Shown piece after piece: positions 1,986 to 32,495 of a stretch of 64,000 bases of DNA (position 1 is its first letter; each line of letters starts with the position of its first letter). Origin of the DNA: a virus (Duplodnaviria; Caudoviricetes); the IMG/VR virus record IMGVR_UViG_3300036944_000273, positions 938-64,937 of that record. One strand, written 5' to 3'. The position numbers and the translations under genes are program-made. The notes under the pieces are model-generated. The model saw nothing but the letters and a program-made list of their open reading frames with translations, was not told where the DNA came from and did not search any database.

Positions 1986-2229
1986 TTCTGGGTATAAAGC
2001 CGTTGAAGAATTAATTAAGGTTGCAGAAGAGAAGATTGTTACGCATGCTGAGGATGACCTTAGTGCAGACAAGTTAAAGAATGCCGCTCAGGCAAAGAAG
2101 CTCGCCATCATGGATGCGTTCGAGATTCTTAAGCGTGTCGAGGAGGAGAATAACATCATCGAAGGCGTTGTCAATAATCAAGTAAATACAAACAGAGGAT
2201 TTGCAGAGTCTAGAGCTAAGAACAAATGA
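1948..2229 (+). CDS. Putative terminase small subunit
   Basis: Small helical protein directly upstream of and overlapping terL. Confidence 0.5.
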   Translation: MNKITDLKKRIIDSGYKAVEELIKVAEEKIVTHAEDDLSADKLKNAAQAKKLAIMDAFEILKRVEEENNIIEGVVNNQVNTNRGFAESRAKNK

Positions 2230-4439
2230 GTTTACACAAACTTCTTGTTGATGTAATCCCACAGAAAGTTCTTGATAAAAAGAACGCTAAGAATCAGTGG
2301 GAATATGGGTGGGATCCGGAATATGATATGGTTGTCATATCTAAAGATGGAACCGTCGGAGATGTATATGACATACAAGGCTTAAGAGTTGCTTTGCCTA
2401 AGACTCCAAATAAAGTTGACTATAAAGTCAATAAGTGGCAAGCTACTGAACTTCCTAAAGAACTATCCCGTATCAAGACAATCTTTGATTGGAATAGACG
2501 GGACAATTCTTTTAAGAATCAATGGGTTGACTTTATCGAGCAAGAGTTTGATCGACGTGAACTTGGCTATTGGTTTATCAACAATGGCGTAAAGACTTAC
2601 ATTACCGGGCATCACTACATGTATCTTCAGTGGACAAAGACTGATGTGGGTCACCCTGACTTCCGTGAATCAAACAGAATATTCTTTTTATTTTGGGAGG
2701 CATGCCGAGCTGATGCAAGATGCTTTGGTATGTGTTATTTAAAGAACCGTCGTTCCGGATTCTCGTTTATGGCCTCCTCGGTATCTGTTGATATTGCAAC
2801 CCTTGCAAAAGATGCACGTATTGGTATGGTCTCCAAGACTGGACCAGATGCTAAGAAAATGTTTACCGACAAGGTTGTTCCAATTGCAAACAACTATCCA
2901 TTCTTCTTTCAGCCCGTGCGTGATGGTATGACCACGCCAAAGACCGAACTTGCGTTCCGTGTCCCTGCTTCTAAGATTACACGTAAGAACATGGACCAAG
3001 AGCAAGATGAAGAGATAGACGGATTAGATACATCCATTGACTGGCGTAACACAGCAGACAACTCGTACGATGGTGAGAAGCTTCGATTCTTGATTGAGGA
3101 CGAGGCTGCAAAGTTAGAGAAGCCAATGAACATTGAAAATGGTTGGCGTATTCGTAAGACTTGCCTCCGCTTAGGTGCAAGGATTATTGGTAAGTGTATG
3201 ATGGGATCAACATCCAACGCACTTGATAAAGGTGGAGAAAATTATAAAAGATTATATGAAGATTCTGATGTTAGGAAACGCAATAAAAACGGGCAAACGC
3301 TTTCAGGCTTGTATGCTCTTTTTATCCCGATGGAGTATAATTTTGAGGGATATATTGATGAATTTGGCCACGCTGTATTAGAGACTCCTGAGAAACCAAT
3401 TAAGTCGGCTGAGGGAACTTGGATTACCCAAGGCGTTATCGAGTATTGGAACAATGAGGTGTCATCCTTAAAATCAAACCCGGATGCACTCAATGAATTC
3501 TATCGTCAGTTCCCACGTACTGAGTCGCACGCTTTCCGTGATGAGACTAAGTCATCTATCTATAACTTAACCAAAATCTATCAGCAGATAGATTACAACG
3601 ACGGCATGATAGCTGATCGTGTACTAACGAGAGGGTTCTTTCACTGGAAAAATGGTGAGAAGGACACAGAGGTTATTTGGACACCCGACAAGAACGGTCG
3701 GTTCATCGTGTCCTGGATTCCAGATATTGCAATGCGTAATAACTATATAACAAAAAATGGAATCAAATACCCTATTAATGAACACGTTGGTGCGTTTGGA
3801 TGTGACCCTTATGATATTTCGGGTGCTACATTTGGTGGTTCGAACGGTGCTCTTCATGGTCTTACTAAGTTTAATATGGCGAATGCTCCGTCAAATGCGT
3901 TCTTCCTAGAGTACGTTGCTCGTCCACAGACGGCAGAGATATTCTTTGAAGAGGTCCTAATGGCTTGCGTATTCTATGGCATGCCAATACTTGCAGAGAA
4001 TAATAAAGCCCGTCTACTGTATCACTTTAAGAACAGGGGCTACCGTGGATTCTCAATGAACAGACCCGACAAGCATAAGGCTAAGTTGTCTTTTACTGAG
4101 ATTGAGATTGGTGGCATACCATCATCTAGCGAAGATATGAAGCAAGCACACGCTGCAGGTATCGGTACTTACATTGAGAAATATGTAGGGTATGATTTAG
4201 AAGCTACTTACCGAAATCCAGATGAGATTGGTAACATGCCATTCAACAGAACTCTTTTAGATTGGTCTAAATTCAATGTAAACGATAGAACAAAGTTTGA
4301 TGCTTCTATCAGTTCCGGTTTAGCGATTATGGCAAACCAAAAGCATATTTATATGCCTGAGAAAAAAGAGTCAAAAATAAGCATTAAATTTGCAAGATAC
4401 GATAACAGCGGTTCAGCGAGTAGACTGAAAATAATATGA
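2226..4439 (+). CDS. terL: Terminase large subunit
   Basis: Walker A-like LKNRRSGFS, Walker B LIEDEAAK, motif III GSTSN, RNase H-like GCDPYD, AENN, and C-terminal D-ASISS; crAss-like type. Confidence 0.92.
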   Translation: MSLHKLLVDVIPQKVLDKKNAKNQWEYGWDPEYDMVVISKDGTVGDVYDIQGLRVALPKTPNKVDYKVNKWQATELPKELSRIKTIFDWNRRDNSFKNQWVDFIEQEFDRRELGYWFINNGVKTYITGHHYMYLQWTKTDVGHPDFRESNRIFFLFWEACRADARCFGMCYLKNRRSGFSFMASSVSVDIATLAKDARIGMVSKTGPDAKKMFTDKVVPIANNYPFFFQPVRDGMTTPKTELAFRVPASKITRKNMDQEQDEEIDGLDTSIDWRNTADNSYDGEKLRFLIEDEAAKLEKPMNIENGWRIRKTCLRLGARIIGKCMMGSTSNALDKGGENYKRLYEDSDVRKRNKNGQTLSGLYALFIPMEYNFEGYIDEFGHAVLETPEKPIKSAEGTWITQGVIEYWNNEVSSLKSNPDALNEFYRQFPRTESHAFRDETKSSIYNLTKIYQQIDYNDGMIADRVLTRGFFHWKNGEKDTEVIWTPDKNGRFIVSWIPDIAMRNNYITKNGIKYPINEHVGAFGCDPYDISGATFGGSNGALHGLTKFNMANAPSNAFFLEYVARPQTAEIFFEEVLMACVFYGMPILAENNKARLLYHFKNRGYRGFSMNRPDKHKAKLSFTEIEIGGIPSSSEDMKQAHAAGIGTYIEKYVGYDLEATYRNPDEIGNMPFNRTLLDWSKFNVNDRTKFDASISSGLAIMANQKHIYMPEKKESKISIKFARYDNSGSASRLKII

Positions 4440-6865
4440 ACGACCCTTTAATAATGATTAATCCTTCTAGCTTTCCAACGCAACTGGCGACGGATGCAGA
4501 AAAAGCATCAAAAGAATTCGGATTAAAAGTAGGACAGAGTATCATGTGGGAATGGTTTGCCAAGACAGGTAATAACTGTCGCTACTATTCTCAATGGATT
4601 GACTTTCATCGCATTAGATTATATTCTCGTGGAGAGCAACCGATAAGTAAATACAAAGAACAATTCCAAGTAGATGGTGATATGTCACATATCAACCTAG
4701 ACTGGACTCCTGTTCCTATCATCCCTAAGTTTGTTGATATCGTTGTTAACGGGATGAATGACCGTCTTTTTGAGGTTAAGGCATATGCACAAGATGCAAT
4801 GTCTATTGAGAAAAGAAGTAAGCATCAAGAAATGGTTGAATCAAATATGCTTGCCAAGGATGTTCTTATGCAAATTAAAGAGCAGTTTGGTGTAGATACA
4901 TTTGATGTTAACCCTGATGAATTACCTGCAAGTGAAGAAGAATTAAGCCTATACATGCAGCTTAAATATAAGCCTGCTATTGAGATTGCCGAAGAGGTGG
5001 CTATTAATACTATCTTAGATTCAAACCACTACAATGATGTTAGGAAGAGAGTTGATTACGATATCACTACAATTGGTATCGGTATGGTTAAGCATTCATT
5101 TGTACCTGGAACTGGCGTAAGAGTAGAATATGTGGACCCTGCAAATATGGTATATAGTTACACGGAGTCACCAACTTTTGACGACTGTTTCTATTTTGGC
5201 GAAGTTAAGCAAGTACCTATTACTGAACTTATTAAAATCAAACCGAACATTACTAATGAAGAACTTGCAGAAATTCAGCAACTTGGTACAGCTTGGTATA
5301 ATTATTATGGGGTACTTCGCCCTTATCGTAGCGACTTATTTAACAGAGACGTTGTTACTTTGTTGTATTTCAATTATAAGACTGATAAAACGTATGTATA
5401 CAAAAAGAAATACACGGACAACGGAGGATCAAGAGTAATTGAGAAAGACGAGAGCTTCCAAGTTCCAGAAGGAATGGAGGAGCGTTTCGAACGTATTGAG
5501 AAGCGTATCGATGTTTGGTACGAAGGCGTTATGGTTATGGGCTCAAGTTACCTATTGAAATGGGAACTTGCTAAGAACATGGTTCGTCCTAAGTCTGCAT
5601 CTCAGTATGCGTTGCCTCAGTACATTGCTGTTGCTCCACGTATGTACAAAGGAGTTATCGAGTCATTGACTCGTCGTATGATTCCTTTTGCTGACTTAAT
5701 TCAATTAACTCACTTAAAGCTACAACAAGTATTACAGCGTGTTGTGCCAGATGGTGTGTACATTGATGCTGATGGTATCAATGAGGTTGACTTGGGTACA
5801 GGAGCAGCATACAATCCAGAGGATGCATTAAGATTGTATTTCCAAACTGGTAGTGTTATTGGTCGTAGTTCAACTATTGATGGCGACTTTAACCATGGCA
5901 AGATACCAATCCAAGAACTTAATACGAATAGTGGACAAGGTAAGATTACTGCATTGATTAATGCGTACAATCAGTATCTATCTATGATTAGAGATGTAAC
6001 AGGATTGAATGAAGCAAGAGATGCTTCGTCTCCAAACCCTGATGCATTAGTTGGCGTACAGAAACTTGCTGCATTAAACTCTAATACAGCTACCCGCCAT
6101 ATCTTAGAAGGAAGTTTATTTATTACTCGTCGTTTATCTGAGGCGTTGTCATGCCGCGTTGCTGACATCTTAGAATATTCTGATTTCAAAGAGCAGTTTA
6201 CAATGCAGATCGGAAAGTATGCTGTAGGTATTCTTGATGAAATCAAAGACCTATACATGTATGACTTTGGTGTGTTTATTGAAGTGTCTCCAGATGAGGA
6301 TCAGAAAGCACAGCTCGAAGCTAACATTCAGATGGCGTTACAACGTGATCAGATTAGCCTAGAAGATGCTATTGATATCCGTCAGATGAAGAACCTTAAA
6401 CTTGCCAATGAGTTGCTTAAGTTTAAGCGTAAGCAGAAGCAGAAGCAAGACATGGAGCAAGAGCAAGCTAAGATTCAGATGCAAACTCAAGGCAATATCC
6501 AATCTTCTCAAGCATCTGCTCAAGCGGCATTACAGAAGGTTCAAGCAGAAGCTCAAGCTAAAACTCAAATTGCTCAATCACAAATGCAGTTTGATATTCA
6601 ACGCATGCAAGCCGAGGCTCAAATCAAAGAGCAACTTATGAGTGTGGAGTTTAACTACAATATGCAACTAAAAGGCATGGAGGTAGAACAGATTAAGAAT
6701 ATTGACATGGACAAAGAAAAGGCCAAGGACAATAGAACAAAATTACAAGCTACACAGCAATCAAAGTTGATTGAGCAACGTCAAAAAGACCTACCTGCTA
6801 TGAACTTTGAGTCTGATGAAGATTCGTTGGATGGGTTCGATTTAGAGCAGTTCAATCCAAGATAA
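4436..6865 (+). CDS. Portal protein
   Basis: 809 aa following terL; PIIPKFVDIVVNG, IRDVTGLNEARD, Q-rich C-terminal barrel. Confidence 0.88.
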   Translation: MNDPLIMINPSSFPTQLATDAEKASKEFGLKVGQSIMWEWFAKTGNNCRYYSQWIDFHRIRLYSRGEQPISKYKEQFQVDGDMSHINLDWTPVPIIPKFVDIVVNGMNDRLFEVKAYAQDAMSIEKRSKHQEMVESNMLAKDVLMQIKEQFGVDTFDVNPDELPASEEELSLYMQLKYKPAIEIAEEVAINTILDSNHYNDVRKRVDYDITTIGIGMVKHSFVPGTGVRVEYVDPANMVYSYTESPTFDDCFYFGEVKQVPITELIKIKPNITNEELAEIQQLGTAWYNYYGVLRPYRSDLFNRDVVTLLYFNYKTDKTYVYKKKYTDNGGSRVIEKDESFQVPEGMEERFERIEKRIDVWYEGVMVMGSSYLLKWELAKNMVRPKSASQYALPQYIAVAPRMYKGVIESLTRRMIPFADLIQLTHLKLQQVLQRVVPDGVYIDADGINEVDLGTGAAYNPEDALRLYFQTGSVIGRSSTIDGDFNHGKIPIQELNTNSGQGKITALINAYNQYLSMIRDVTGLNEARDASSPNPDALVGVQKLAALNSNTATRHILEGSLFITRRLSEALSCRVADILEYSDFKEQFTMQIGKYAVGILDEIKDLYMYDFGVFIEVSPDEDQKAQLEANIQMALQRDQISLEDAIDIRQMKNLKLANELLKFKRKQKQKQDMEQEQAKIQMQTQGNIQSSQASAQAALQKVQAEAQAKTQIAQSQMQFDIQRMQAEAQIKEQLMSVEFNYNMQLKGMEVEQIKNIDMDKEKAKDNRTKLQATQQSKLIEQRQKDLPAMNFESDEDSLDGFDLEQFNPR

Positions 6866-6904: not shown

Positions 6905-8038
6905 ATGGAAAATTTTCAAGTAAAACTGGTAGACTTTGAAGAGAAGTCTGTCCAAGAAGTAGAAGAAACTCTACTTAAAGTACACGAAGAAAAAACAGGC
7001 ATTCCTCAAATTGAGGAGCAAGAAACTTTAAAAGTAGAAATCCCTGCTGAACCCGACACAGCAGGAGGTTTTAATGGAGATGAGCAATCAAATCCACCAT
7101 CGCCATCATTTGATGACGAAGACGTTCTTTCATATATTAGAAGCAAGTATAATAAAGAAGTCAATTCTATTGACGACTTATTTAAACCAGCTGAAGCACA
7201 ACAGGAATTATTACCTGAAGATGTATCAGCTTTTTTAAAGTTCAAGAAAGAAACAGGTCGTGGGCTAGAAGACTTCTATCGTATTAACAAAGATTTCTCA
7301 ACTGAGAATCCGGAGCGTTTATTAGCTACGTATTTAAAGGAGATTAACCCTGAGTTGGACGACGAGGATATCCAGTATGAAATGGCTGATAAATTTGGCT
7401 ATGATGAAGATTTGGATGACGAGCGTGATATCAAGAAGAAAAAACTTGCATTTAAAAAAGAGCTAACTAAGGCATCGAAGTATTTTGATGAACAGAAGGA
7501 GAAGTATAGAACGCCACTCGAGTCGATTGGCACATCGTCTATCTCTCAAGAAGATCAGCAAGCTTTGGAGTCTTATAAGCAATATGTGAACCAGGCTACT
7601 GCTCAACAGCAGGACCAGGTTAAGAAATCTGAATACTTTGTTCAGAAGACTAATGAATTGTTCAGCAATGAATTTGAAGGTTTCAAGTTCGGAATTGGTG
7701 ATAAAGATTTGTCTTGGAAACCTAGTAATACAGAAGACTTAAAAAACAAGCAGATGGACATATCTAAATTCTTCGGCAACTTTGTTGATGATAACGGATA
7801 TATTAAAGATGCTAAGTCGTATCATAAGACAATGGCGGTTGCAATGAACCCTGACTCTTTTGCAAAGTTCTTTTACGAACAAGGCAAATCTGATGCAATA
7901 GATGATTCTGCAAGGCAGAGCAAGAATATTGACATGGGTAGCGTTCGTACAACAGGACAGCCAATTGACAAAGGAGGATTTAAAGTAACATCATTGGATA
8001 GTGATCACGGCAATAGATTAAAAATTAGAAAACTTTAA
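6905..8038 (+). CDS. Capsid scaffolding protein (putative)
   Basis: Acidic helical protein between portal and capsid; FFYEQGKSDA motif. Confidence 0.7.
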   Translation: MENFQVKLVDFEEKSVQEVEETLLKVHEEKTGIPQIEEQETLKVEIPAEPDTAGGFNGDEQSNPPSPSFDDEDVLSYIRSKYNKEVNSIDDLFKPAEAQQELLPEDVSAFLKFKKETGRGLEDFYRINKDFSTENPERLLATYLKEINPELDDEDIQYEMADKFGYDEDLDDERDIKKKKLAFKKELTKASKYFDEQKEKYRTPLESIGTSSISQEDQQALESYKQYVNQATAQQQDQVKKSEYFVQKTNELFSNEFEGFKFGIGDKDLSWKPSNTEDLKNKQMDISKFFGNFVDDNGYIKDAKSYHKTMAVAMNPDSFAKFFYEQGKSDAIDDSARQSKNIDMGSVRTTGQPIDKGGFKVTSLDSDHGNRLKIRKL

Positions 8039-8058: not shown

Positions 8059-9474
8059 ATGGCTGGATCAGTTCAAAGTACCCCAGGCTTTGCTTTACAA
8101 CCGTCAGCGGTAAAAGCTACATTGCCTACAAACTACATTACTAACTTCGACTTCATGAATCAGTATCTTCCAGATACTTACGAGAAGGAATTCGAGCGTT
8201 ATGGTAATCGCTCTATTGCATCTTTCTTACGTTTAGTAGGAGCTGAGATGCCGTCTAACTCTGACTTAATCAAATGGGCAGAGCAAGGACGTTTACACAC
8301 TAAGTACACTAACGTGACTACTGATGGCGTTGTTGGAGACAACACTGCTACTTGGACTGTTAATGATGCTAACGTGACAGTTAACTTCCGTGTTAACCAA
8401 ACTGTATTCTTATCAGCTAACGCTGGGGCTGCTTCTGATCGTGCGGTTATTACTGCAGTTGATGCTGCTAACAACACTTTCGATGTAGCTTACTACTCAG
8501 CTGATGGTCAAGCTATCGCTGCTGCTGCTGCTTCTACTGCTTTCGTTTACGGTTCTGAATTCACTAAGGGTTCTACTGGTATGATTGGTTCTTTGGAATC
8601 TGAAGATGTATTCTTCGAGAACAAGCCTATCATCATCAAGGACAAGTACACTGTATCTGGTTCTGACATGGCTCAAATCGGATGGGTTGAAGTAACTTCT
8701 GAGAATGGTGCTACTGGATACTTATGGTACATCAAATCTGAGCACGAGACTCGTTTACGTTTCGAAGATTACTTAGAGATGTCAATGGTTGAGGGTGTTC
8801 CTGCAGAAGCTGGTTCAGGTGCTTTGACTTACTTGACAGTTGCTGCTTCTCAAGTACAACCTGGTGCTGCTGGTACTGAAGGTTTATTTGATGCAGTTGC
8901 TACTCGTGGTAACGTATGGTCAGGTGGTAACCCATCTACTTTGTCAGACTTCGATTCAATCATTCAACGTCTTGACAAGCAAGGAGCTATCCAAGAGAAC
9001 GTAATTTTCTTGAACCGTCAATTCTCATTCGATATCGATGATATGTTGGCTTCTCAAAACTCTTACGGTGCTAACGGTACTTCTTACGGTTTGTTCGACA
9101 ACGATGAGAACATGGCTTTGAACTTAGGTTTCAAAGGCTTCAAGCGTGGTTATGACTTCTACAAGACTGACTGGAAATACTTGAACGATGCAACTCTTCG
9201 TGGTGGAATCGTAGGTGGAGCTATCAACGGTATCTTGGTACCTGCAGGTTCTACTACAGTTTACGATCAAATCTTAGGTAAAAACGCTAAACGTCCGTTC
9301 TTACACGTTCGTTACCGTGCTTCTGAGACCGAAGATCGTCGTTACAAGACTTGGATCACAGGTTCTGCTGGTGGTGCTCAAACTAGCGACCTAGATGCAA
9401 TGGAGGTTAACTTCTTATCTGAGCGTGCATTATGTACACTTGGTGCGAACAACTTCTTCTTGTTCGAAGCATAG
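8059..9474 (+). CDS. Major capsid protein
   Basis: 471 aa, strong highly-expressed codon bias (ttc/aac/act/ggt), KWAEQGRLH, position after scaffold, followed by a terminator. Confidence 0.88.
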   Translation: MAGSVQSTPGFALQPSAVKATLPTNYITNFDFMNQYLPDTYEKEFERYGNRSIASFLRLVGAEMPSNSDLIKWAEQGRLHTKYTNVTTDGVVGDNTATWTVNDANVTVNFRVNQTVFLSANAGAASDRAVITAVDAANNTFDVAYYSADGQAIAAAAASTAFVYGSEFTKGSTGMIGSLESEDVFFENKPIIIKDKYTVSGSDMAQIGWVEVTSENGATGYLWYIKSEHETRLRFEDYLEMSMVEGVPAEAGSGALTYLTVAASQVQPGAAGTEGLFDAVATRGNVWSGGNPSTLSDFDSIIQRLDKQGAIQENVIFLNRQFSFDIDDMLASQNSYGANGTSYGLFDNDENMALNLGFKGFKRGYDFYKTDWKYLNDATLRGGIVGGAINGILVPAGSTTVYDQILGKNAKRPFLHVRYRASETEDRRYKTWITGSAGGAQTSDLDAMEVNFLSERALCTLGANNFFLFEA

Positions 9475-23048: not shown

Positions 23049-26000
23049 ATGTCAGATCAAATACCTCAATTACCAGTACCTTCAGCCGAAGAAATTAAAA
23101 AGTTTAAAGCTAAAGTGCCATCGGTAGGGGTTTCAGGTGGAACGGGTTTACCTATTCCATCATCCGAGGATATAAAAAAATTCAAGGCACCTGTAGTTGA
23201 AAAAAAAAAGCCTATGGCTTCTCCTTCAGTTTTGGAGAAACCAGCTGCTTCATCGGTTGCCGGATTACGTCCAATGGCACCTTTATCGGTATCTACTTCA
23301 ACTAAAAAGCCTGAGCAATTAGTTGCACCAACACCTGTCGCTAAACCAGTTCAAGCACCCACACAAAACGTGAGTGTGACTGGCAGCCAAGGCAAGCTTT
23401 TAATTCCTGATCCAATCCAAAAGGTGCCAGCTGTTAAAGAAACAGTTACATCTTTTAAGAAAGTACCTGTATTTAAATCAGATAAAGACTTAGCTTTGAA
23501 TCCAGAGCTAATGCTTAAGGCTATCTTTAAAAATGAGCAGGGTACACTAGGCAAGACGACAAGCGTAAAAGCTTCAGGCGGTATGCGTAACACGGCATCT
23601 GGTACATATCAGATGACTGATGAAACCAAGAGAGACGTATACAATAGAAACAAAGAATTTCAAAACCAATTCGGTAATTATAATTCATTCTTAAAAGAGT
23701 TTAACAAGAACCCTTCATTGGAATTTGAGGCTGCGTTGAGCCACATGACTGACTTGGTTAAGCAGTACGGCAAGTATGCTATGGCTGCTTGGTACTCACC
23801 TAGCCATGCTGCTCAAGCGGCAAATGGTAATGTGCGTGCACTAAATACTGTACCAAGAAAAGATGCTGGAAATAAAATGACCGTTAAGGCATATTATGAC
23901 AATGCAATCAATGAGTACAAAAGATTATCCAAAGGCTTTAAAGGAGAGAAAGACTTTGTTAAAGTTCCTGTAAAAACAGAAGTTATCAAACAACCTGCGG
24001 TGAACGTGCCTTCTCTTGAGAAGTTTAACGTGTTAAACCCTAACTGGTATGGTGGGCCTGTAACTAATGAAGCAAAGCCTGCTGTTGCACCTAAGAAAGT
24101 TGGGGCAATCGAAGATATCAATAACAGATTCTTGTCTTCTGCTTCTAATCTTGCTAGTGGTATTGCTGGCTTGCCTAATGCTGCTAACAAAGCAGGGTTA
24201 ATGATGACTGCCAAACTTCTTGGCATTGACGATGAGTATAATGCTCTACCTGTTCAAGCAAAAAAAGAAGTTGACGCAGTCGTGTCAAATATTGCACAAA
24301 AGGGGGGCGTTCCCTCAGGAGTTGTTTCTAGCCAAGTACAAGATTATTTTATTAGAAAGAGCGATGAGTTTCTTGAGAATACAAATAAGTCTGATAAATA
24401 TATTAATGAAAGATTTGGGGATTTCTTTAAAGCACCATCTGTAGATAAAGCTACTGATTTGTTTCTTGAGATTCCTAGAGGTTTTGCTGGTAGCTTGCCG
24501 TACATGATAAACCCATTACTTGGGGCTATCAGTGCTGGTAGCGAGCAGTACAATAAAGATATAAAAGAAGCAGATGGCAAGTTAGGTTGGGGGCAATTAG
24601 TTAACGCTGGTGTTACTGGTGTCAGCGAATATTATATTGAGAAAATTACAAAGGGTATTTTAAACCGTTCAGTTGCAAGTGCTATTGGTGTCCCAAAAGT
24701 TGCTAAAGAATTAGCTGATGGATTTGTTAAGTCTGTGTTGAAAGACGTTGGAATGGAGTCAGCCGGTGAAGGATTAACTCAATTGATTCAGTCAGTGAGT
24801 AATGATATCACAAAGGGCAACGAGATTGACTGGGTAAAGACTGCTAATGAAACACTCGATGCAGCTATAACTGGTGCTGGTATTGCTGGCGGCATGAGAA
24901 CAACTGGTGCTGGTATTGGATACCTAGCCAAGAAAGTTATGCCTCCATCTGAAAAGAATGAGATTGATCGTAACACTAGAGCTATCATGGACCTCAATAG
25001 CAAAAAAGGTCCTGACAATTCACCTGAGGTGAATGCTGTTATCGATAGCAGAGTAAAAGAATTAGACGATGTCAATAAGAATATTATCAATACTAACATT
25101 GATAAAGTTAAGTCTATGTCAGACGATCAACTTAAAGAGATCGTAAACATCGATAAAGGTATTAGTGATATTTATACACAGCGTGATGCTGTTGTTTCTA
25201 ATGAAAATCTTAACGATGAAGAAAAACAATCATTGTTAGATTATTTAAAATCCAGAGCTACAAAATTAAACGAACAAAAAGATGCCATTCAAAAGCAAAC
25301 AACAAGTGAAGTTCCTATTCAGCCAGAAGCCGGAGCTGGCGTCCAAGTGGCGGAAGGAGAATCCCAAGCAAAACCTCAAGTCGCTGCCAAAGAAGGTCAA
25401 GAAGTAGTAGACATTACAGCCAGTATACCTAAGCAAGATTTGCCTAAGGTGATGGACTTGGTTGGCAAAATTGAGAAAGGCGAGCAAGCGTCTTCTCCTG
25501 AAGACTTGCAGACACAGCAGAACTATGCCAAGGAAGTGGAAGCACTTCTAGCTAAACGTGCTGCTGATGTTAAAGCTGTGGAGTATAGCTTTGATGTTAA
25601 TACTCCTACTAAATTTAACGAATCAGAAATGCCTGAGGTGTCAGTTGATAACATCGACTGGGAAGCAAGCGGTATGGGTAATGTGTATGATGCAATCGAC
25701 TCATATGGTGGCATCAATGATATCACAGTTGTTGACGTTCGTGGCAAGAATGCAGATGGATTGTATGAGGCAAAAGTTCGCGTTAAAGGACAAGATGTGT
25801 CTCGCGAAGGTGTTGTTTTACTTAAGGATCCGAACGCTCAACAGAAGCCACGTGTGGCTCGCAAAAAGAACGTATCGCCTGAGTTCTTGGCAGTAGAAAA
25901 AGTATTGTCAGACAATGGCGTGTATCCTTCATTTGATAACGTAGAAGAAATTGTTAAGATTACTAAAGGTAAGGCTGGCAACATTACTCAGCAAGACGTT

Positions 26001-29000
26001 CAAGATGTAGTTAAGGTATATAATAAGAAAGCAAAAGCAATTGCTGATGCATTTAATAAACAAAAGCCAAATGAAAATATACAAGCTAAAAAGCCTAGAG
26101 CCGATGTCGCTGCCGAGGAAACTACGCAGGGGACACAACCTGAAGCTGGAGCAACTGAGCAGCCTGCACAAGCTATTAGTAAAAGGCAAGAAATCAAAAG
26201 CTCTCTCGAAAACCTTAAAGATGTCGGCCTCCTAAGGTCAGCTATAACTGGCAAGAAAGATATATCTCAAGGAGAGATAGATTCTCAAATGGCACTAACA
26301 GATGCCATGGCTAATGTATGGAGAGAGACAACTGGCCGTGATGACTTCTATGAAAACTTCTTTAATGACGTTAGTCAAGGAGACATAGACAGTATTATGG
26401 AGAAGGGTGGCGTATTGTTCCAAAACATAGAGCTACCACAACGTCCACTTACTCGTGTTTCGTTAGGCGTGTTTGACTTGCTTGAGTTTAAGAAGATGGA
26501 GGGTCAAGAGGTATCTATTAATTCAGTTAAAGACTTAGCTAGAACAAGAGGCAAGCAAATCGAGAAAGATTTAATGCAGACTGTTCTTGACTACGATAAA
26601 TATAAGGAAGCTAAAAAGATTTCATACGACGAGTTTAAGAGCGACGTAGAGATGCAAGTAATGAAGCTTGAGAAGATTGTAACTTCTTCTTATGCTTCAT
26701 ATGGTGCTGACAATCTTGGAGATGATGGTGTATATGGTGATGCAAATACTATTATATACAATAGTCCAATAGATCATGGTGAGTATGGCCACTTTAGAGG
26801 AGACTTTAAATATAGTGGTATTAAAAAAAATATAAGCGATTTTGATAATACTGAATGGGAAATAAAACAAATCCCAGGAACTGATCAATATGTAGCTGTT
26901 GATAAGTCAATGCCTGATAATGTTTCTCAAGATCAATTATCAAACTATATTGGTACAGCAGGGAATAAGGAGTCTGTTGAAAGATGGGTGAGTCAACGTA
27001 ACTTATGGCAAATGACAAATGAGCAGGCACGTCAAGGAGACGTGAACGTAGGCTTATTTGGTCATACACGTGTTTGGTATGACGAAGGCAATCCATATTA
27101 CTTAGCTGAACTTCAAAGTGATTACTTCCAAAAGAACGACCCAAATGATTTGTATGCTAGTCAGGTAGATAGAGAAGAAGGAATAGATTATGCGTATGAA
27201 AAATATAATAAAGAACATCGTCCTGAAGTTTTAAAAGAAATAAAAAAGGCATTAAATGTAAAAATAGAAATTGAAAATAGGGGTAAAGGTGAAGAAAAGT
27301 ATTCTTGGGCAAAAGCATATGTATACAAGGATAATGGCGATAAATTAATAGAATCTCCAGTATATGAGCAATTGAGAGCTGATGGAGGTAGTATGGATAA
27401 CGAAGATTGGGATGAATTTTTACTTAATGAAGTTGGTGGTACTTTGTTATTGCAACGGCCATTTAACAGCGAAAAAACCAAAAAAGAGATTGAGGAATTA
27501 TTAAATAATGATCCAGAATCGTTGCGTACTATTGGATATAGATATAAAAGTTTAGATAAAACTTATACGGAAGCTAAATATGAATTAATTCAACAATACA
27601 GAAACGAGTACACTAAAAACGAAATAGAAAAAATTAAGAACTCTGAGAAGGGCGTATCAATGCTTAAGCAATTTGTGGCATCTCAGAAAGTTCATGAGCT
27701 TAGATTACTTCGTGAGTCATTCCGTAACGCTGCACAAGAAGGAGCTGAGACTTTACGTTTCCCTACACCTTTTACACTTGCTGTAATTGAAGGTTATGTG
27801 AATAAGCCAGGAGAAAATGGAGCTCCGTATGAAATTGTTTCTGGGAATAGCGACAGATTATACCAAGGCGACATCATTGATTATGGTGGGACTGAGATGG
27901 TTGTTGTGGGTCAAGATGGGCTTAGGATAATGGTAGCACCTAGAGATGAAGTGCAGATATATGACTACTATGATTATGTAAACAGCGAAGTAGAATATTT
28001 TTTAGATGAAACTTTATCTTATTTAAGAAGAGATTTTAATGATGTTAATAATATAACAGAATCAGATATTGAGAATTTTGATTTTGAAAATTTAGATTGG
28101 CAAGCAAGTGACACTCAAGATATATTATTAGCTGCTATTAATGATTCAGAGACAGGAATTATATCTTTAAAAGATGTAGAAGAAAAAATTGAAGATGCAA
28201 TTAGAAGCAGTTTTGATAATTTATCTGTTGGTGATTTATTTATGGGAGATGAAATATATTCAGATGGTGATCAAACATATTACGTTATAGAAAGAAGAAA
28301 CCAAGTAGAGACTTTTTATCAGCCAGATGAATATGATGACACTACTGATCCTGATCTATACGAAGCTAATCTAGGCGATGCACAAAAAACAGTTGTCAAT
28401 AAGTATAAGGAGCTTAATAAGATATTTAAAAAAATGCGTCCCGATGCTGAGGTTATTACCGATGACAACGGCATGCAATGGCTTGAGACTAAACTTACTC
28501 CTGAGGATGCCAACAACCCTCTTATTGCGTTCCAAGAAGAAGGCGGTAATATTAAAGGTGCTGTTGACTTCTCGAATGATAATAAGGCATCTGTGTACAT
28601 GTTCGATGGTGCAGACATCACAACATTGGCTCACGAAATGTCAGGCCACTTGGGCCGTAGATTCTTAGAGCAACTGTCAAGTGTAGACGAAGACTTTGCT
28701 AAAGACTATGAGGCGGCAAAAGAATGGGCGGGCGTTAGAGATAATCAATGGACAATTGCTGCAGAAGAGAAATGGGCTCGTGGATTTGAGAAATACTTAA
28801 GAGATGGCAAGGCTCCAACAAAAGCCTTGAAGTCTGTGTTTGATAATCTGCGTGATTGGTTGAAGAATATCTATAAGTATATCAAAGGTAGTAGCATCGA
28901 CATAGAGTTAACTCCTCAGATAACCAAAGTATTTGACAACTTGTTAGGAGCTCGTAGCGAAGACGTAGGCATTAAAGAACTACCTGGCTATGATCGAATG

Positions 29001-32000
29001 ATGGGTGAGGTAGAAGGCATTGTCGATAAGTCATTTAAGCGTGGCGTTTCTTACAATCAAACTTTAGAAAATGCTCTTAGTTATCTATCTACATCAAAAG
29101 TGTATGAGGATGCAACAGACATCCAGCGTGAGGCAATGGTGCGTGAGATTCGTAAGATGTTTAAGCAGAAAGAAAAGAAAGCTCCGACTGTACAAAAGAT
29201 CTTAGGCCAAGAGCCAACATTGACAACTGTTGTTATTGACGAAGCAAAAGAAATAAACAAAAGACTCAAGGCTCTTGATGCTGCGGAGACAGCAGGAAGA
29301 AAGAAGGGATACAAAGAAGGAACAAAGGAATCAGAAGATGCAAAGAAAGATATCATTGATATCGTCAGATCAATGAAGGTTAATAACAAGATTTCTGGTT
29401 CACAGTTTAAGGCTATTGTTAATGCACTTAAAGGTAACCTCCTAAATCCTGTAATCCGTAAGCGTGTTGAAGAGCGTATTGCAAAGATTATTAATCGGGC
29501 AAACTATGCTGATCAATTAGAGCGTGCCAATAAACTTAGCAAAGCAATTAAAAAAGCTTCTAAGTCTAATACATTGCCAGCTAACATAGCTAAGATGGCT
29601 AGAAACTTTGGTAAGATTAAGCCAAATTCTGTGCCAAATATTGAAGAGTATATGGACATGGCAACTTTGGTTTATGACTCTATTGGTAAGCCTATGCGTA
29701 GCATTGCATCAGAAGATATGATCAATGAATACACAGAACTTAGATTGCAAGAAGCTAGAGATGCAAAAAATGATGTCTTGGCAGAGCAATATAAGGCACT
29801 TGTTGATGGTGGTATTTTACCTTCAGGTATGCCATTAAAAGAAATCCAAGATTATATTTTAAGTGTTGAGCAAAAGAAAGCACAAGAAATAAGCAAGGAA
29901 AAAGAAAAAGAAATGCGTGCCAACCTAAAGGCAGTATTTGAAGCTTTATCTGACATATCCAATACAATTGTTACAGAAGGTATAAATCCATTAACAGGGG
30001 AGGAAATAGAGGTTAGTGCTGAAGATAAGAAGATGATACAAGAGTTCACTAATATGGACTTGGATAAACTATCAATTCCATCTGCTTACCGTGCTCAAGA
30101 AGCACTAATGAACTACGTTATCAATGGTAAAAAGTTTGGCATGAGATCAATCTTGGCTAAGTACCAAGGACAAGAAAATGTTAAGATTGCTGTTGATAAA
30201 GGGTTGAAAGCTGCTGATTTTAGATGGGCAGTAGGTGGTAGCTGGTGGGGTTCACGCAAGTGGGCTAAAGAAGTTGAGTCAATACCAGGATTATTTACTT
30301 GGTTATTTAGAGGTAGAAATCGTGGTGGCGAAATGATGAAGCTTATGGGACTTGATGAATTCATGGCTGGTGCTGCCGAAGGAAAGCTTAAGCGGATTGA
30401 GGCTGAGAATGAATACATTGCTAAGTTCTTAAATAAGAAGCCTAACGGCAAGCGTTTTAATAACATCAACAATACATATGAGAGATTAGTGTATGCTTAT
30501 TTATCTCGTACGGTTGATGGAACTCCAGAGCAAAAGCAAGACGAGTTTGATCGACGCAAGAGAATTCTTTTACAAAACGTGCAAGCAATGTATCAATCAA
30601 GAAATAAAGAATTGATTGAAGAAGGTAAAGTATTGGAGAAAGAATTAAATAAAGTCAAGAATGCAAAGACTTCATCTGAGATGCAAGGTAAGTTTGATAA
30701 GATAAATGAGGAGGCTGTACAGTTTATCTCAAATAAATTTGATCAAAACTTTGACTTTGTTGAAGATGTAGCAGAAGGGGTATACAACTTGATACTAAAC
30801 AAAGACGAGCTATATACTCCTGACATGTTTAGAAGTATTGTAGAGAAAGATGTCAATGTAGCTGAAGCTCAGGAGACTGTCGACTTGCCTTTTGATTTAT
30901 TAAACAAGAAGCCTGCAGGCACAATGATGGAGAACAAACGTATCCAGAATTTACCAGGCTACGACGTTGAGAATAAAGATGCATCTAATGTAGAGAAGAT
31001 TCTTAGATTAGACTTTGATGCTAGTTCATTTAATGCACTAGAAAAGGCACTTGTTGACGCAAATACAGCGGAGGCAGTACAGAAGTATAGTGCATTTGTT
31101 AATTCAAAAGACTTTATTAAGTTATTTGATAACATTAAGGACCAGCAATTATTTAAGGAGATTGTAAACTTCTATATAAATAACGAGCGTGGTAAGATTG
31201 GTTATAAGTCTGATTGGAAAGCTGTACAGAACTTTACAAACAGAATTAAATCTTTATCTACATATCGTGCACTAGGATCACTTACTGCAATTGTTAAGCA
31301 GTCTGCATCAGCAGCAATTAACACGGCAATTAACTTATCTAATGATCCATATGCAATGAAGCAAGTTGCTAATGCGATGTTCTTTAATTCAGACATCCAA
31401 GATTTTATTAGCAGAAATAGAAGTGAGATTAATCTACGTGGTGCGGAGTCAACAGCCGACATTAAATCTGCTGAAAAATTAATCCGTGATTCAAAATATC
31501 AGACAGTTAATGATGTATTAGATACTGTTGATAAACTAGGTAGATTTCAAATGAAGTCTTTGGCAGCAGGTGACGTGCCTTTGGCTCGTGCTTCTTGGTT
31601 TGGTTATTATATACACGCTCTTAAAAAAGAAGGCAAGCCTTATAATAATATAGACTGGGCTACAGAAAATATTGACAAAGATGCTCTTGCTTATGCTAAC
31701 AGAGAGGTGTCTCTTAATCAAAATGCTAGTATGCCATCTACTATGGGTAGAGCTTTTGCTAGTAAGAACCCGGCTACTAAACTTATTATGGCTTATGTAT
31801 TCCCATACACAAGTTTCTTGTTTAATGCTAAGAGTAGATTGAAGACTGACATTACGGTGTTAACTAGTAAGTTGGCTACTGCGGAAGACAAGCAAGCTGC
31901 AGGCCGATCAATGGTTGCGACATTAGCTGAGTTACCTGCATATATAATGATGCAAACAGCTATCAACTATGGACTAGTTACATTAGCTAATATGTTCCTT

Positions 32001-32495
32001 GGATACGAAGAAGATGAGGAAGATGAGAAATTAAGATTAAAGAGATACTCTGAGTTGGCGGTAACAAGAATCATAACAGACTTATTATCACCGACTCCAA
32101 ACGTAGGTGACGTTGCTACTGTTGCTGCATTCAATGCATTACTAACAAAGATGCAAGAGGAACCAGAAATGGATCAGGAAGATAAGATGGATATGTTTAA
32201 GCTTTTTGAAAGCAAGCCAGACTCAATGGCTGGGGCAATGGCTGAGTTGTTATTGCAACCAATTGCATCGACAGGTAGACGTGCTGCTGATATCTATACT
32301 ACAATTGACATGGCTGTCGGAGACTATTATGTAACCGATACTGGCAAGGAGATAGAGTTTACAGAAGAAAATAAGAAGTTCTTAAAGATAGCTGCTACTA
32401 TGCAAGTAATGGGTAGCTTGAACTTACTACCATCGGAAGCTGAGTCGCTGGCCAAGAAGATGGTCAAGACGATCGAAAAGAGTGCTAAGGAATAA
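23049..32495 (+). CDS. Giant ejection / large polyvalent protein with lysozyme-like domain
   Basis: 3148 aa; transglycosylase-like AIFKNEQG..ASGTYQM..AAWYS (~23510-23920); GHTRV..LAELQSD; zincin-like TLAHEMSGH..EEKWARGFEKY (~28630). Confidence 0.8.
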   Translation: MSDQIPQLPVPSAEEIKKFKAKVPSVGVSGGTGLPIPSSEDIKKFKAPVVEKKKPMASPSVLEKPAASSVAGLRPMAPLSVSTSTKKPEQLVAPTPVAKPVQAPTQNVSVTGSQGKLLIPDPIQKVPAVKETVTSFKKVPVFKSDKDLALNPELMLKAIFKNEQGTLGKTTSVKASGGMRNTASGTYQMTDETKRDVYNRNKEFQNQFGNYNSFLKEFNKNPSLEFEAALSHMTDLVKQYGKYAMAAWYSPSHAAQAANGNVRALNTVPRKDAGNKMTVKAYYDNAINEYKRLSKGFKGEKDFVKVPVKTEVIKQPAVNVPSLEKFNVLNPNWYGGPVTNEAKPAVAPKKVGAIEDINNRFLSSASNLASGIAGLPNAANKAGLMMTAKLLGIDDEYNALPVQAKKEVDAVVSNIAQKGGVPSGVVSSQVQDYFIRKSDEFLENTNKSDKYINERFGDFFKAPSVDKATDLFLEIPRGFAGSLPYMINPLLGAISAGSEQYNKDIKEADGKLGWGQLVNAGVTGVSEYYIEKITKGILNRSVASAIGVPKVAKELADGFVKSVLKDVGMESAGEGLTQLIQSVSNDITKGNEIDWVKTANETLDAAITGAGIAGGMRTTGAGIGYLAKKVMPPSEKNEIDRNTRAIMDLNSKKGPDNSPEVNAVIDSRVKELDDVNKNIINTNIDKVKSMSDDQLKEIVNIDKGISDIYTQRDAVVSNENLNDEEKQSLLDYLKSRATKLNEQKDAIQKQTTSEVPIQPEAGAGVQVAEGESQAKPQVAAKEGQEVVDITASIPKQDLPKVMDLVGKIEKGEQASSPEDLQTQQNYAKEVEALLAKRAADVKAVEYSFDVNTPTKFNESEMPEVSVDNIDWEASGMGNVYDAIDSYGGINDITVVDVRGKNADGLYEAKVRVKGQDVSREGVVLLKDPNAQQKPRVARKKNVSPEFLAVEKVLSDNGVYPSFDNVEEIVKITKGKAGNITQQDVQDVVKVYNKKAKAIADAFNKQKPNENIQAKKPRADVAAEETTQGTQPEAGATEQPAQAISKRQEIKSSLENLKDVGLLRSAITGKKDISQGEIDSQMALTDAMANVWRETTGRDDFYENFFNDVSQGDIDSIMEKGGVLFQNIELPQRPLTRVSLGVFDLLEFKKMEGQEVSINSVKDLARTRGKQIEKDLMQTVLDYDKYKEAKKISYDEFKSDVEMQVMKLEKIVTSSYASYGADNLGDDGVYGDANTIIYNSPIDHGEYGHFRGDFKYSGIKKNISDFDNTEWEIKQIPGTDQYVAVDKSMPDNVSQDQLSNYIGTAGNKESVERWVSQRNLWQMTNEQARQGDVNVGLFGHTRVWYDEGNPYYLAELQSDYFQKNDPNDLYASQVDREEGIDYAYEKYNKEHRPEVLKEIKKALNVKIEIENRGKGEEKYSWAKAYVYKDNGDKLIESPVYEQLRADGGSMDNEDWDEFLLNEVGGTLLLQRPFNSEKTKKEIEELLNNDPESLRTIGYRYKSLDKTYTEAKYELIQQYRNEYTKNEIEKIKNSEKGVSMLKQFVASQKVHELRLLRESFRNAAQEGAETLRFPTPFTLAVIEGYVNKPGENGAPYEIVSGNSDRLYQGDIIDYGGTEMVVVGQDGLRIMVAPRDEVQIYDYYDYVNSEVEYFLDETLSYLRRDFNDVNNITESDIENFDFENLDWQASDTQDILLAAINDSETGIISLKDVEEKIEDAIRSSFDNLSVGDLFMGDEIYSDGDQTYYVIERRNQVETFYQPDEYDDTTDPDLYEANLGDAQKTVVNKYKELNKIFKKMRPDAEVITDDNGMQWLETKLTPEDANNPLIAFQEEGGNIKGAVDFSNDNKASVYMFDGADITTLAHEMSGHLGRRFLEQLSSVDEDFAKDYEAAKEWAGVRDNQWTIAAEEKWARGFEKYLRDGKAPTKALKSVFDNLRDWLKNIYKYIKGSSIDIELTPQITKVFDNLLGARSEDVGIKELPGYDRMMGEVEGIVDKSFKRGVSYNQTLENALSYLSTSKVYEDATDIQREAMVREIRKMFKQKEKKAPTVQKILGQEPTLTTVVIDEAKEINKRLKALDAAETAGRKKGYKEGTKESEDAKKDIIDIVRSMKVNNKISGSQFKAIVNALKGNLLNPVIRKRVEERIAKIINRANYADQLERANKLSKAIKKASKSNTLPANIAKMARNFGKIKPNSVPNIEEYMDMATLVYDSIGKPMRSIASEDMINEYTELRLQEARDAKNDVLAEQYKALVDGGILPSGMPLKEIQDYILSVEQKKAQEISKEKEKEMRANLKAVFEALSDISNTIVTEGINPLTGEEIEVSAEDKKMIQEFTNMDLDKLSIPSAYRAQEALMNYVINGKKFGMRSILAKYQGQENVKIAVDKGLKAADFRWAVGGSWWGSRKWAKEVESIPGLFTWLFRGRNRGGEMMKLMGLDEFMAGAAEGKLKRIEAENEYIAKFLNKKPNGKRFNNINNTYERLVYAYLSRTVDGTPEQKQDEFDRRKRILLQNVQAMYQSRNKELIEEGKVLEKELNKVKNAKTSSEMQGKFDKINEEAVQFISNKFDQNFDFVEDVAEGVYNLILNKDELYTPDMFRSIVEKDVNVAEAQETVDLPFDLLNKKPAGTMMENKRIQNLPGYDVENKDASNVEKILRLDFDASSFNALEKALVDANTAEAVQKYSAFVNSKDFIKLFDNIKDQQLFKEIVNFYINNERGKIGYKSDWKAVQNFTNRIKSLSTYRALGSLTAIVKQSASAAINTAINLSNDPYAMKQVANAMFFNSDIQDFISRNRSEINLRGAESTADIKSAEKLIRDSKYQTVNDVLDTVDKLGRFQMKSLAAGDVPLARASWFGYYIHALKKEGKPYNNIDWATENIDKDALAYANREVSLNQNASMPSTMGRAFASKNPATKLIMAYVFPYTSFLFNAKSRLKTDITVLTSKLATAEDKQAAGRSMVATLAELPAYIMMQTAINYGLVTLANMFLGYEEDEEDEKLRLKRYSELAVTRIITDLLSPTPNVGDVATVAAFNALLTKMQEEPEMDQEDKMDMFKLFESKPDSMAGAMAELLLQPIASTGRRAADIYTTIDMAVGDYYVTDTGKEIEFTEENKKFLKIAATMQVMGSLNLLPSEAESLAKKMVKTIEKSAKE
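23200..23243 (+). promoter_or_regulatory. Candidate -1 ribosomal frameshift signal
   Basis: A10 run containing in-frame A_AAA_AAG (23204-23210); hairpin TGG-C-TTCTCC/GGAGAA-A-CCA at 23215-23243. Confidence 0.65.
25282..25407 (+). CDS. Nested out-of-frame small basic protein MPFKSKQQVKFLFSQKPELASKWRKENPKQNLKSLPKKVKK
   Basis: +1 frame inside the giant gene; A-rich upstream; resembles the MPFKS..Q..(P)E.A..W small phage protein family. Confidence 0.6.
   Translation: MPFKSKQQVKFLFSQKPELASKWRKENPKQNLKSLPKKVKK

Follow-up and report, generated by a model that had tools for sequence, protein, structure and literature searches.

Can 126 nucleotides that lie wholly within the coding sequence of a giant phage gene, and are read one base out of register with it, be a gene in their own right? 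The question is raised by the open reading frame (ORF) at 25282..25407 (+ strand) of a 64,000-nucleotide stretch of viral DNA, called the window throughout, which covers positions 938-64937 of the 64,937-bp IMG/VR record IMGVR_UViG_3300036944_000273. The record is rated 100% complete, and the source genome is a complete 64.9-kb podovirus-like phage. The surrounding giant gene (23049..32495, +, 3148 codons) was held by the original prediction, which was made from the letters alone, to have engulfed a real small gene that standard annotation misses. Our analysis of the ORF, of its profile matches and of the selection acting on it indicates that 25282..25407, with 41 codons and a TAG, is very probably a genuine gene, which codes for a protein and overlaps the giant virion gene.

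Translation returned the ORF as it had been described: it begins with an ATG at 25282, ends with a TAG at 25405-25407, encodes a 41-residue peptide identical to the one originally quoted and is read in +1 relative to the giant ORF, (25282-23049) mod 3 being 1. The net charge is +11 for the small protein of the window and -4 for the giant-frame segment. The length of the ORF is ordinary, as 8 of the 83 out-of-frame ATG-started ORFs on the same strand of the giant gene reach at least 41 amino acids; what exceeds chance is the conservation, for the ORF is nevertheless intact across relatives. For three further long +1 ORFs of the giant gene the relatives offer no conserved counterpart, save for one weak match in the closest relative. 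The locally GC-rich stretch and the A-rich upstream sequence that had been pointed out are both real: the GC content of the nested ORF is 49.2% compared to 38.0% for the giant gene (98.8th percentile of 126-nt windows), and the 20 nucleotides before the ATG (25262..25281, +, inside the giant coding sequence) are 70% A (99.5th percentile of the 20-nt windows of the giant gene), compared to a mean of 50% before the 47 gene starts of the window. A hidden Markov model (HMM) of the family matched the 64,937-bp record in exactly one place, the nested ORF (E 9.3e-26).

The small ORF recurs in many related phages. A tblastn search with the 41 residues against the phage collection matched 80 records, of which 68 are Flavobacterium 'elemo' phages, and in 70 of the 80 at least 80% of the query was matched at 56-58% identity; a blastn search ('distant') of the same collection with window positions 24800-25900 gave no match. 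In MT497067 and MW202828 the match is bounded by an ATG and a stop and lies in the +1 frame of a giant coding sequence (CDS; 3694 and 3859 codons), which is the only CDS annotated over the small ORF. A single feature likewise lies under the match in all 40 phage-collection rows listed, and standard annotation does miss the gene as had been expected. With the family alignment as query, IMG/VR yielded at least 397 confirmed relatives, from which 80 loci were kept for analysis, and an intact ATG-started small ORF is present in all 80. Of these ORFs, 51 lie within a longer open frame of 760-4205 codons (many such frames are cut by contig ends), relative to which they are in +1; three of the 51 differ slightly at the N-terminus and were counted as intact. 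Another 15, here called the 'mid' class, have the same frame relation to a host ORF of 378-428 amino acids, and the remaining 14 are not nested. In all 51 giant-nested loci the stop follows 36-66 codons after the start.

These observations were complemented by an independent census, in which IMG/VR was searched with a six-sequence alignment of a conserved block of the giant gene (amino acids 1978-2270; 28980..29858, +), and the small gene was then sought with the family HMM in six frames. The search returned 32 loci, which come partly from the same contigs as the earlier loci or are duplicates and hence do not stand for 32 independent genomes. In 23 of these loci the giant ORF contains an intact small ORF in its +1 frame, in two (L109 and L114) the small ORF stands free directly after the giant gene, seven have no match to the small family, and no broken copy was encountered. 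In L109 the ATG of the small gene overlaps the giant stop by one base, and the small gene is the last one before a strand switch. Stand-alone homologs of the nested gene therefore exist, as seen in the 14 non-nested loci and in the match to a named protein family described below, and the +1 frame is unbroken in relatives, the two points on which the original prediction had staked itself. The small gene is not universal among the giant-gene relatives, and there is one copy per genome in all six carrier records that were checked (the window and five 'mid' records).

Selection can be assigned to one of the two frames from the variation among the relatives. An alignment of 49 distinct giant-nested loci is free of gaps over the first 36 codons; in pairwise comparisons the +1 peptide is on average 0.759 identical, the giant-frame peptide 0.495 and the DNA 0.750. 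Nucleotide diversity in the same loci is 0.212, 0.142 and 0.395 at the first, second and third codon positions of the small ORF; in the giant frame the third positions are thus the most constrained and the first ones the freest, so that a constraint on the giant protein could not have yielded this pattern. In the frame-0 codon alignment the identity is 0.34-0.56 in the nested block versus 0.10-0.19 in its flanks, the conserved nested block being surrounded by hypervariable sequence.

We further sorted the substitutions into those that are nonsynonymous in both frames (NN), in the giant frame only (NS) and in the +1 frame only (SN). In the giant-nested block (63 distinct sequences) the NN/NS ratio of the +1 frame was 0.325 (95% confidence interval 0.24-0.42) and the NN/SN ratio of the giant frame was 0.97 (0.75-1.27), all intervals being bootstrapped over codons, from pairs of related sequences whose phylogenetic non-independence they ignore. 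The underlying raw proportions were NN 0.221, NS 0.681 and SN 0.228, the NS sites thus being near saturation (p 0.68). The control block, which is the conserved giant domain used as the census seed (13 sequences, excluding L094 and L099 with a register shift of one residue and one row that was too short), gave 0.785 (0.57-1.14) for the +1 frame and 0.344 (0.25-0.45) for the giant frame. For the copies hosted by scaffold-position genes (11 sequences) the ratios were 0.445 (0.23-0.90) for the +1 frame and 0.88 (0.49-2.39) for the host frame. In the giant-nested block there is purifying selection on the +1 frame and none is seen on the giant frame, with the control block reversed, and it is this frame-specific selection, together with the conservation, that backs the claim of a real gene.

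The giant-frame segment encoded by the same DNA (amino acids 745-785 in the frame-0 translation, beginning DAIQKQTTSEV; 25281..25403, +) looks like a tolerated acidic linker because its NN/SN ratio is near 1, and its composition and hypervariable flanks would likewise fit a disordered linker. The mean charge is +11.9 for the small proteins and -6.5 and -16 for the host segments in the giant and the scaffold-position genes, respectively. Lysine codons read one base upstream become codons of the Glu/Gln type. The third sense frame stops within about 8 codons of the start in many loci, which leaves only the frame one base upstream open, and the host is found in the same relative frame each time because it is the single stop-free alternative among the sense frames.

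The start of the small ORF has the properties of a translation initiation site. We compared it in 62 distinct loci with other ATG triplets of the same giant genes: the minimum free energy of the region from -30 to +30 was -2.5 kcal/mol at the nested start and -8.7 kcal/mol at the control ATGs, and 95% of the control windows were more stable than the nested start (paired Wilcoxon p ~8e-12). The fraction of A from -20 to -1 was 0.58 compared to 0.35 in the controls, A occupied position -3 in 73% versus 36% and position -6 in 68% versus 35%, and other ATG triplets within about 25 nt numbered 0.21 versus 1.12. The ATG is invariant and the base before it is variable, the corresponding giant-frame residue being Asp, Asn or Tyr, and the 70 nt upstream of the nested ATG have nothing in common except A-richness. 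Low structure, A at -3 and depletion of nearby AUG triplets are the features reported to determine initiation in Flavobacterium johnsoniae, a member of a phylum without Shine-Dalgarno sites (Baez et al. 2019; PMC6847099). The suggestion of a Bacteroidota-type start that does without a Shine-Dalgarno sequence thus holds for an A-rich, unstructured and ATG-depleted site across the 62 loci.

In the same 62 loci the upstream enrichment in A has a three-base period, with peaks at -2, -3, -5, -6, -8 and -11 to -14. This periodicity implies that the giant frame is held to xAA codons (Lys, Gln or Glu) before the start, which is a second constraint on the host besides the overlap. Two loci (L028:9980-10000 and L050:9980-10000) differ from the rest in having an AGGAGG-like sequence at Shine-Dalgarno distance from the internal ATG. 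Ribosomes of Bacteroidia are reported to ignore such sites (PMC13000453), and the phages of these two loci may have other hosts, or the resemblance may be a chance match.

The 41-residue protein has no Pfam match at E<=10, and the family to which it belongs was delineated by other searches. The original prediction had pointed to a family of free-standing small phage proteins, and such a family was indeed recovered as phrog_1375 of PHROGs, which has no assigned function. The window protein itself matches it weakly (E 0.003), 17 of 28 aligned members match it with a best E of 7.5e-7, and six verified free-standing or fused members do so with E from 2e-4 to 6.5e-7, the values for free-standing members being 1.5e-5 to 6.5e-7; the matches cover profile positions 17-63 of 70, and the PHROG entry says nothing on nesting. 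A protein search by indexed words found 27 proteins of 40-54 amino acids, all of which start with MPFKS and share a common motif through to a Leu-Pro-Lys-Lys tail, and the free-standing homologs start with the same M-P-F-K-S as the nested copies. In a profile search of 1.84 billion cluster representatives (at 50% identity) 3215 matched at E<=1e-3 and 190 at E<=1e-10. Among the 150 matches listed, most have 42-90 amino acids with the motif at residues 1-41, and many have 100-380 amino acids with the motif as an N-terminal module; when longer members were scanned with Pfam, the remainder had no family in 30 of 36, and unrelated domains were found in the other six. A full-text literature search for the N-terminal motif 'MPFKSK' found no paper.

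An AlphaFold2 model built on the family alignment has predicted helices at residues 6-15 and 17-26 and a flexible Lys-rich tail (mean predicted local distance difference test score 73). Pfam DUF3008 (PF11450) was considered as a relative and rejected, as none of 88 small members and none of the free-standing members match it at E<=1; the lead had come from the ESM Atlas, where it accounts for 15% of one neighbouring cluster with a score of 0.86, below the 0.9 line, and hmmscan left it unconfirmed. The ESM Atlas otherwise returned unnamed viral clusters only. A subfamily with two cysteines (...KACYA.N.PKWDC.KW...) comprises L001:12001-12129, L002:12001-12132, L088, L103-L105 and L110 and includes the copies of the cultured Flavobacterium elemo phages, among them the one in the +1 frame of the giant gene of MT497067; the version in the window is without these cysteines, whose conservation suggests a disulfide or a metal site. 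A tblastn search of the phage collection with a free-standing member found only seven Streptomyces phage records, each matching 63% of the query. In these phages (e.g. ON108647.1:27333-27413) the N-terminal 27 residues match where two annotated genes meet or overlap, which may be another overlap or a mis-called start site.

The places that the small gene takes in phage genomes are varied. The 15 'mid' loci have the synteny of the window (terminase, portal, an acidic protein of 378-428 amino acids, capsid-like gene); the gene between the portal and the capsid-like gene hosts the small ORF, which begins 70-166 nt downstream of the host's start. One 'mid' record that is 98% complete (G007) has a syntenic giant gene of 2608 codons with no small copy inside; BLASTP found no significant similarity between its product and the giant protein of the window, and a giant-gene profile had no match in five 'mid' records, an empty result of such a profile being uninformative. 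The scaffold-position hosts have neither a Pfam family nor a PHROGs match. Among free-standing copies, one lies between the portal and the scaffold gene (L062), two just upstream of the portal (L060 and L071), one among connector genes (L076) and one after virion structural genes (L082); others are near the terminase or elsewhere, and there is one fused form of 198 amino acids. Verified free-standing copies occur in unrelated genome types, which include GC-rich contigs with Shine-Dalgarno sites and a 219-kb contig. Only two host genes, both of one syntenic phage group, were found to contain nested copies.

In the window, library matches and synteny place a terminase at 2226-4439 and a portal at 4436-6865, followed by a scaffold-position gene of 377 amino acids assigned by synteny (6905..8038), a capsid-like gene at 8059-9474 and further virion genes, all on the + strand. 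The product of 6905..8038 is 35-36% identical to the 378-428-residue hosts of the sister phages over the C-terminal ~275 amino acids (E 1e-60 to 3e-61); it is thus a homolog of the alternative host of the nested gene, and the copy in the window has no nested ORF. The giant gene is the last one of the structural block on the + strand, and replication genes follow on the - strand. A GroEL-like chaperonin gene (515 amino acids, phrog_5725, E 1e-129) is located at 51868-53415 (+), and a GroES-like gene occurs at L079:7447-8037, a locus with a free-standing copy. The host is probably a member of the Bacteroidota, as suggested by the Flavobacterium phage relatives and the GC content of 38%.

The giant gene is a virion-module gene. 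Pfam found no family in its product or in three other large ORFs of the window, and its single PHROG match is phrog_9880 (no function assigned; amino acids 1827-2094). In cultured Flavobacterium phages and in MW202828 the related genes bear the annotation 'structural protein' or an uninformative name, so that the label they would lend the giant gene is 'structural protein', not the 'ejection' of the original prediction. The gene is strongly mosaic: in a tblastn profile search its C-terminal ~1150 amino acids are common to many relatives at 25-36% identity, and its middle part (amino acids ~1021-1678) is 42-44% identical to two loci only (L030:11053-12942 and L035:11020-12204). The nested gene is located at a junction between such modules.

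One could argue that no small protein exists at all. The island would then owe its conservation to limits on the giant protein, or it would be a nucleic-acid element that acts, for instance, as a packaging signal, a regulatory RNA or a joint for recombination. The position of the island between mosaic modules of the giant gene speaks for such an element. However, variation with a three-base period and with the +1 third positions as the freest, an amino acid identity above the expectation from the DNA in other frames, a start that is conserved and followed by a stop in all 51 giant-nested loci, and protein-level homologs that stand alone within unrelated flanking DNA are not what a nucleic-acid element would produce, and the giant-frame NN/SN ratio near 1 goes against a constraint on the giant protein. 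We therefore give this explanation next to no credence. A +1 frameshift or transcriptional slippage near the A-rich stretch, which would yield a truncated giant protein with a basic tail, is also very unlikely. Short A runs do precede the ATG in several loci, and one protein of 1075 amino acids (P0030) carries the motif in frame at its C-terminus (residues 1034-1074), where it directly follows a part resembling the N-terminal part of the giant protein; P0030 may have come about by frameshifting or by an indel in an A run, or it may represent a genuine fused or split form. Yet it is a single protein without genomic context, and an A-run indel would be enough to produce it. The ATG, in turn, is invariant in all nested loci, free-standing members begin at exactly this Met, and the start has the features of an initiation site, including the depletion of competing ATGs. 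The upstream region is hypervariable, and no slippery heptamer shared among the loci was found there by eye and in the consensus, no dedicated search for frameshift sites having been made.

The small ORF could also have been born de novo inside the giant or the scaffold-position gene and later have escaped to a free-standing life. Overlapping genes of viruses are said to arise usually by overprinting of this kind (PMC8227390), and our tree leaves the root unfixed. We nevertheless consider such a birth improbable here: with its 3215 representatives the family is very broad, and those listed have mostly 42-90 amino acids with the motif at residue 1; its free-standing copies are spread over the unrelated genome types named above; and the nested copies are confined to two host genes of one syntenic group, in which the host frame is unconstrained. 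The opposite direction, in which a host ORF engulfed the small gene, is probable, because the family is broad, free-standing copies occur in unrelated genomes, and the arrangements 'portal - small - scaffold' and 'giant - small' exist. In a quick tree of 88 peptides (50 columns) the architectures cluster, with 5 changes compared to 22.9 with shuffled labels, and 61 giant-nested and 11 scaffold-nested rows fall into one group with a support of 84 in the Shimodaira-Hasegawa-like approximate likelihood ratio test, three divergent giant-nested rows lying outside.

Several observations weigh against a real, engulfed gene with a role in the head, in addition to the saturation of the NS sites, the ignored non-independence of the sequences, the weakness of the window protein's own match to phrog_1375 and the in-frame motif of P0030. 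No RNA sequencing run was found that contains this DNA; among DNA metagenome sequencing runs, two contain the stretch and may be where it came from, and three others contain small shares of it. Of the seven census loci with no small-family match, one is cut at its 5' end; for five (L098, L096, L092, L099 and L100) the whole record was searched, with no match even at E<=1, and one of these records is rated 100% complete. In these giant-gene relatives the small gene is dispensable or replaced. The tree is poorly resolved (4 of its 84 inner branches starred) and unrooted, so that it does not fix the ancestral architecture. As for function, two copies (L078 and L081) are located in nucleotide-metabolism or replication neighbourhoods, and any functional guess is drawn from gene neighbourhood and charge.

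If the gene is real and was engulfed, as we favour, translation of the small protein would start at its own ATG, within the late mRNA and at a region that is A-rich, unstructured and, as in Bacteroidota, independent of a Shine-Dalgarno sequence. The product would have ~41-45 amino acids, be strongly basic (about +12) and consist of two short predicted helices and a Lys-rich tail. Each genome of this phage group would encode it once, and head or virion genes would in every case contain it or adjoin it. The overlap would arise when a neighbouring ORF extends over the pre-existing small gene, and the host would tolerate it because the one open alternative frame yields an acidic linker that is free of constraint.

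What the protein does can be proposed tentatively. It could be a basic protein of the late phase that is associated with the head and binds either packaged DNA or acidic assembly proteins, or else an N-terminal module for head targeting; we consider this possible, though far from assured, given the charge of the protein, the late head genes around it, the link with the giant gene and the use of the motif as an N-terminal module. In T4, prohead-core and internal proteins carry an N-terminal capsid-targeting sequence. The small family is reminiscent of these proteins through its place among head genes and its N-terminal module on varied C-termini, a likeness of design that was drawn neither from sequence similarity nor from a protease site. 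A predicted complex of the small protein with the scaffold-position protein gave no verdict, with a score of 0.00 in a prediction made without control runs. The 198-residue protein at L081:6360-6956, which has the motif at its N-terminus and is encoded near a primase and an exonuclease, does not fit a head-associated role. A more speculative notion, which we regard as rather improbable, is that the 126-bp stretch may be a portable dual-coding cassette, read as a +12 micro-protein and, one base earlier, as an acidic linker, and dropped into or swallowed by head genes. The basic peptide may then bind the acidic segment encoded by its own DNA or the packaged DNA, which would tie its dose and place to the carrier, and the island may be the recombination joint between the mosaic halves of the giant gene.

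Overlapping genes are well known in phages. The overprinted genes of phiX174 (B in A, E in D, and K) yield two proteins from one DNA stretch in different frames; those overlaps are thought to have been born de novo in a tiny genome where space is limited, whereas here a widespread pre-existing family seems to have been covered in a genome of 65 kb. Closer in architecture is Rz1 within Rz of lambda, as in both cases a larger phage gene fully encloses a small one, which is read in the +1 frame and escapes gene callers. The Rz host is a membrane i-spanin, in contrast to the 3148-residue virion protein or the scaffold-position protein found here, and, unlike Rz1, the small gene sits inside two non-homologous host genes of syntenic sister phages. 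An identity as an o-spanin was rejected, since the 41-residue protein has no Cys, lipobox, signal peptide or hydrophobic leader; it was rejected for the two-cysteine subfamily as well, where Cys 12 and Cys 22 stand in a basic context and not in a lipobox. A host of the i-spanin or lysis-cassette type was likewise dismissed, the hosts being a virion-module gene and a gene between the portal and capsid-like genes. The resemblance to Rz1 in Rz is one of architecture only.

Spanins and the present family have in common that the same gene is embedded in some phages and separate in others. Spanin genes are described in embedded, overlapped and separated forms and as under-annotated, and loss of a stop codon with extension of the ORF has been proposed as a route to embedding (PMC6139136). 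That work reports no spanin family that mixes embedded and separated members, whereas the small family described here mixes both.

Aquatic phages of Bacteroidota, a widespread group with at least 397 related places in IMG/VR, gain from these findings a well-supported gene that annotation had missed. The group includes cultured Flavobacterium phages, in which the gene is directly testable. The locus offers a case in which a widespread small gene that probably existed beforehand has come to be fully nested in two different host genes, as opposed to having been born there, and it thereby bears on the origins of overlapping genes and on how much coding capacity within giant phage ORFs escapes gene callers. 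A further outcome is an uncharacterised and very abundant small-protein module (3215 clusters at 50% identity), whose position links it to head assembly.

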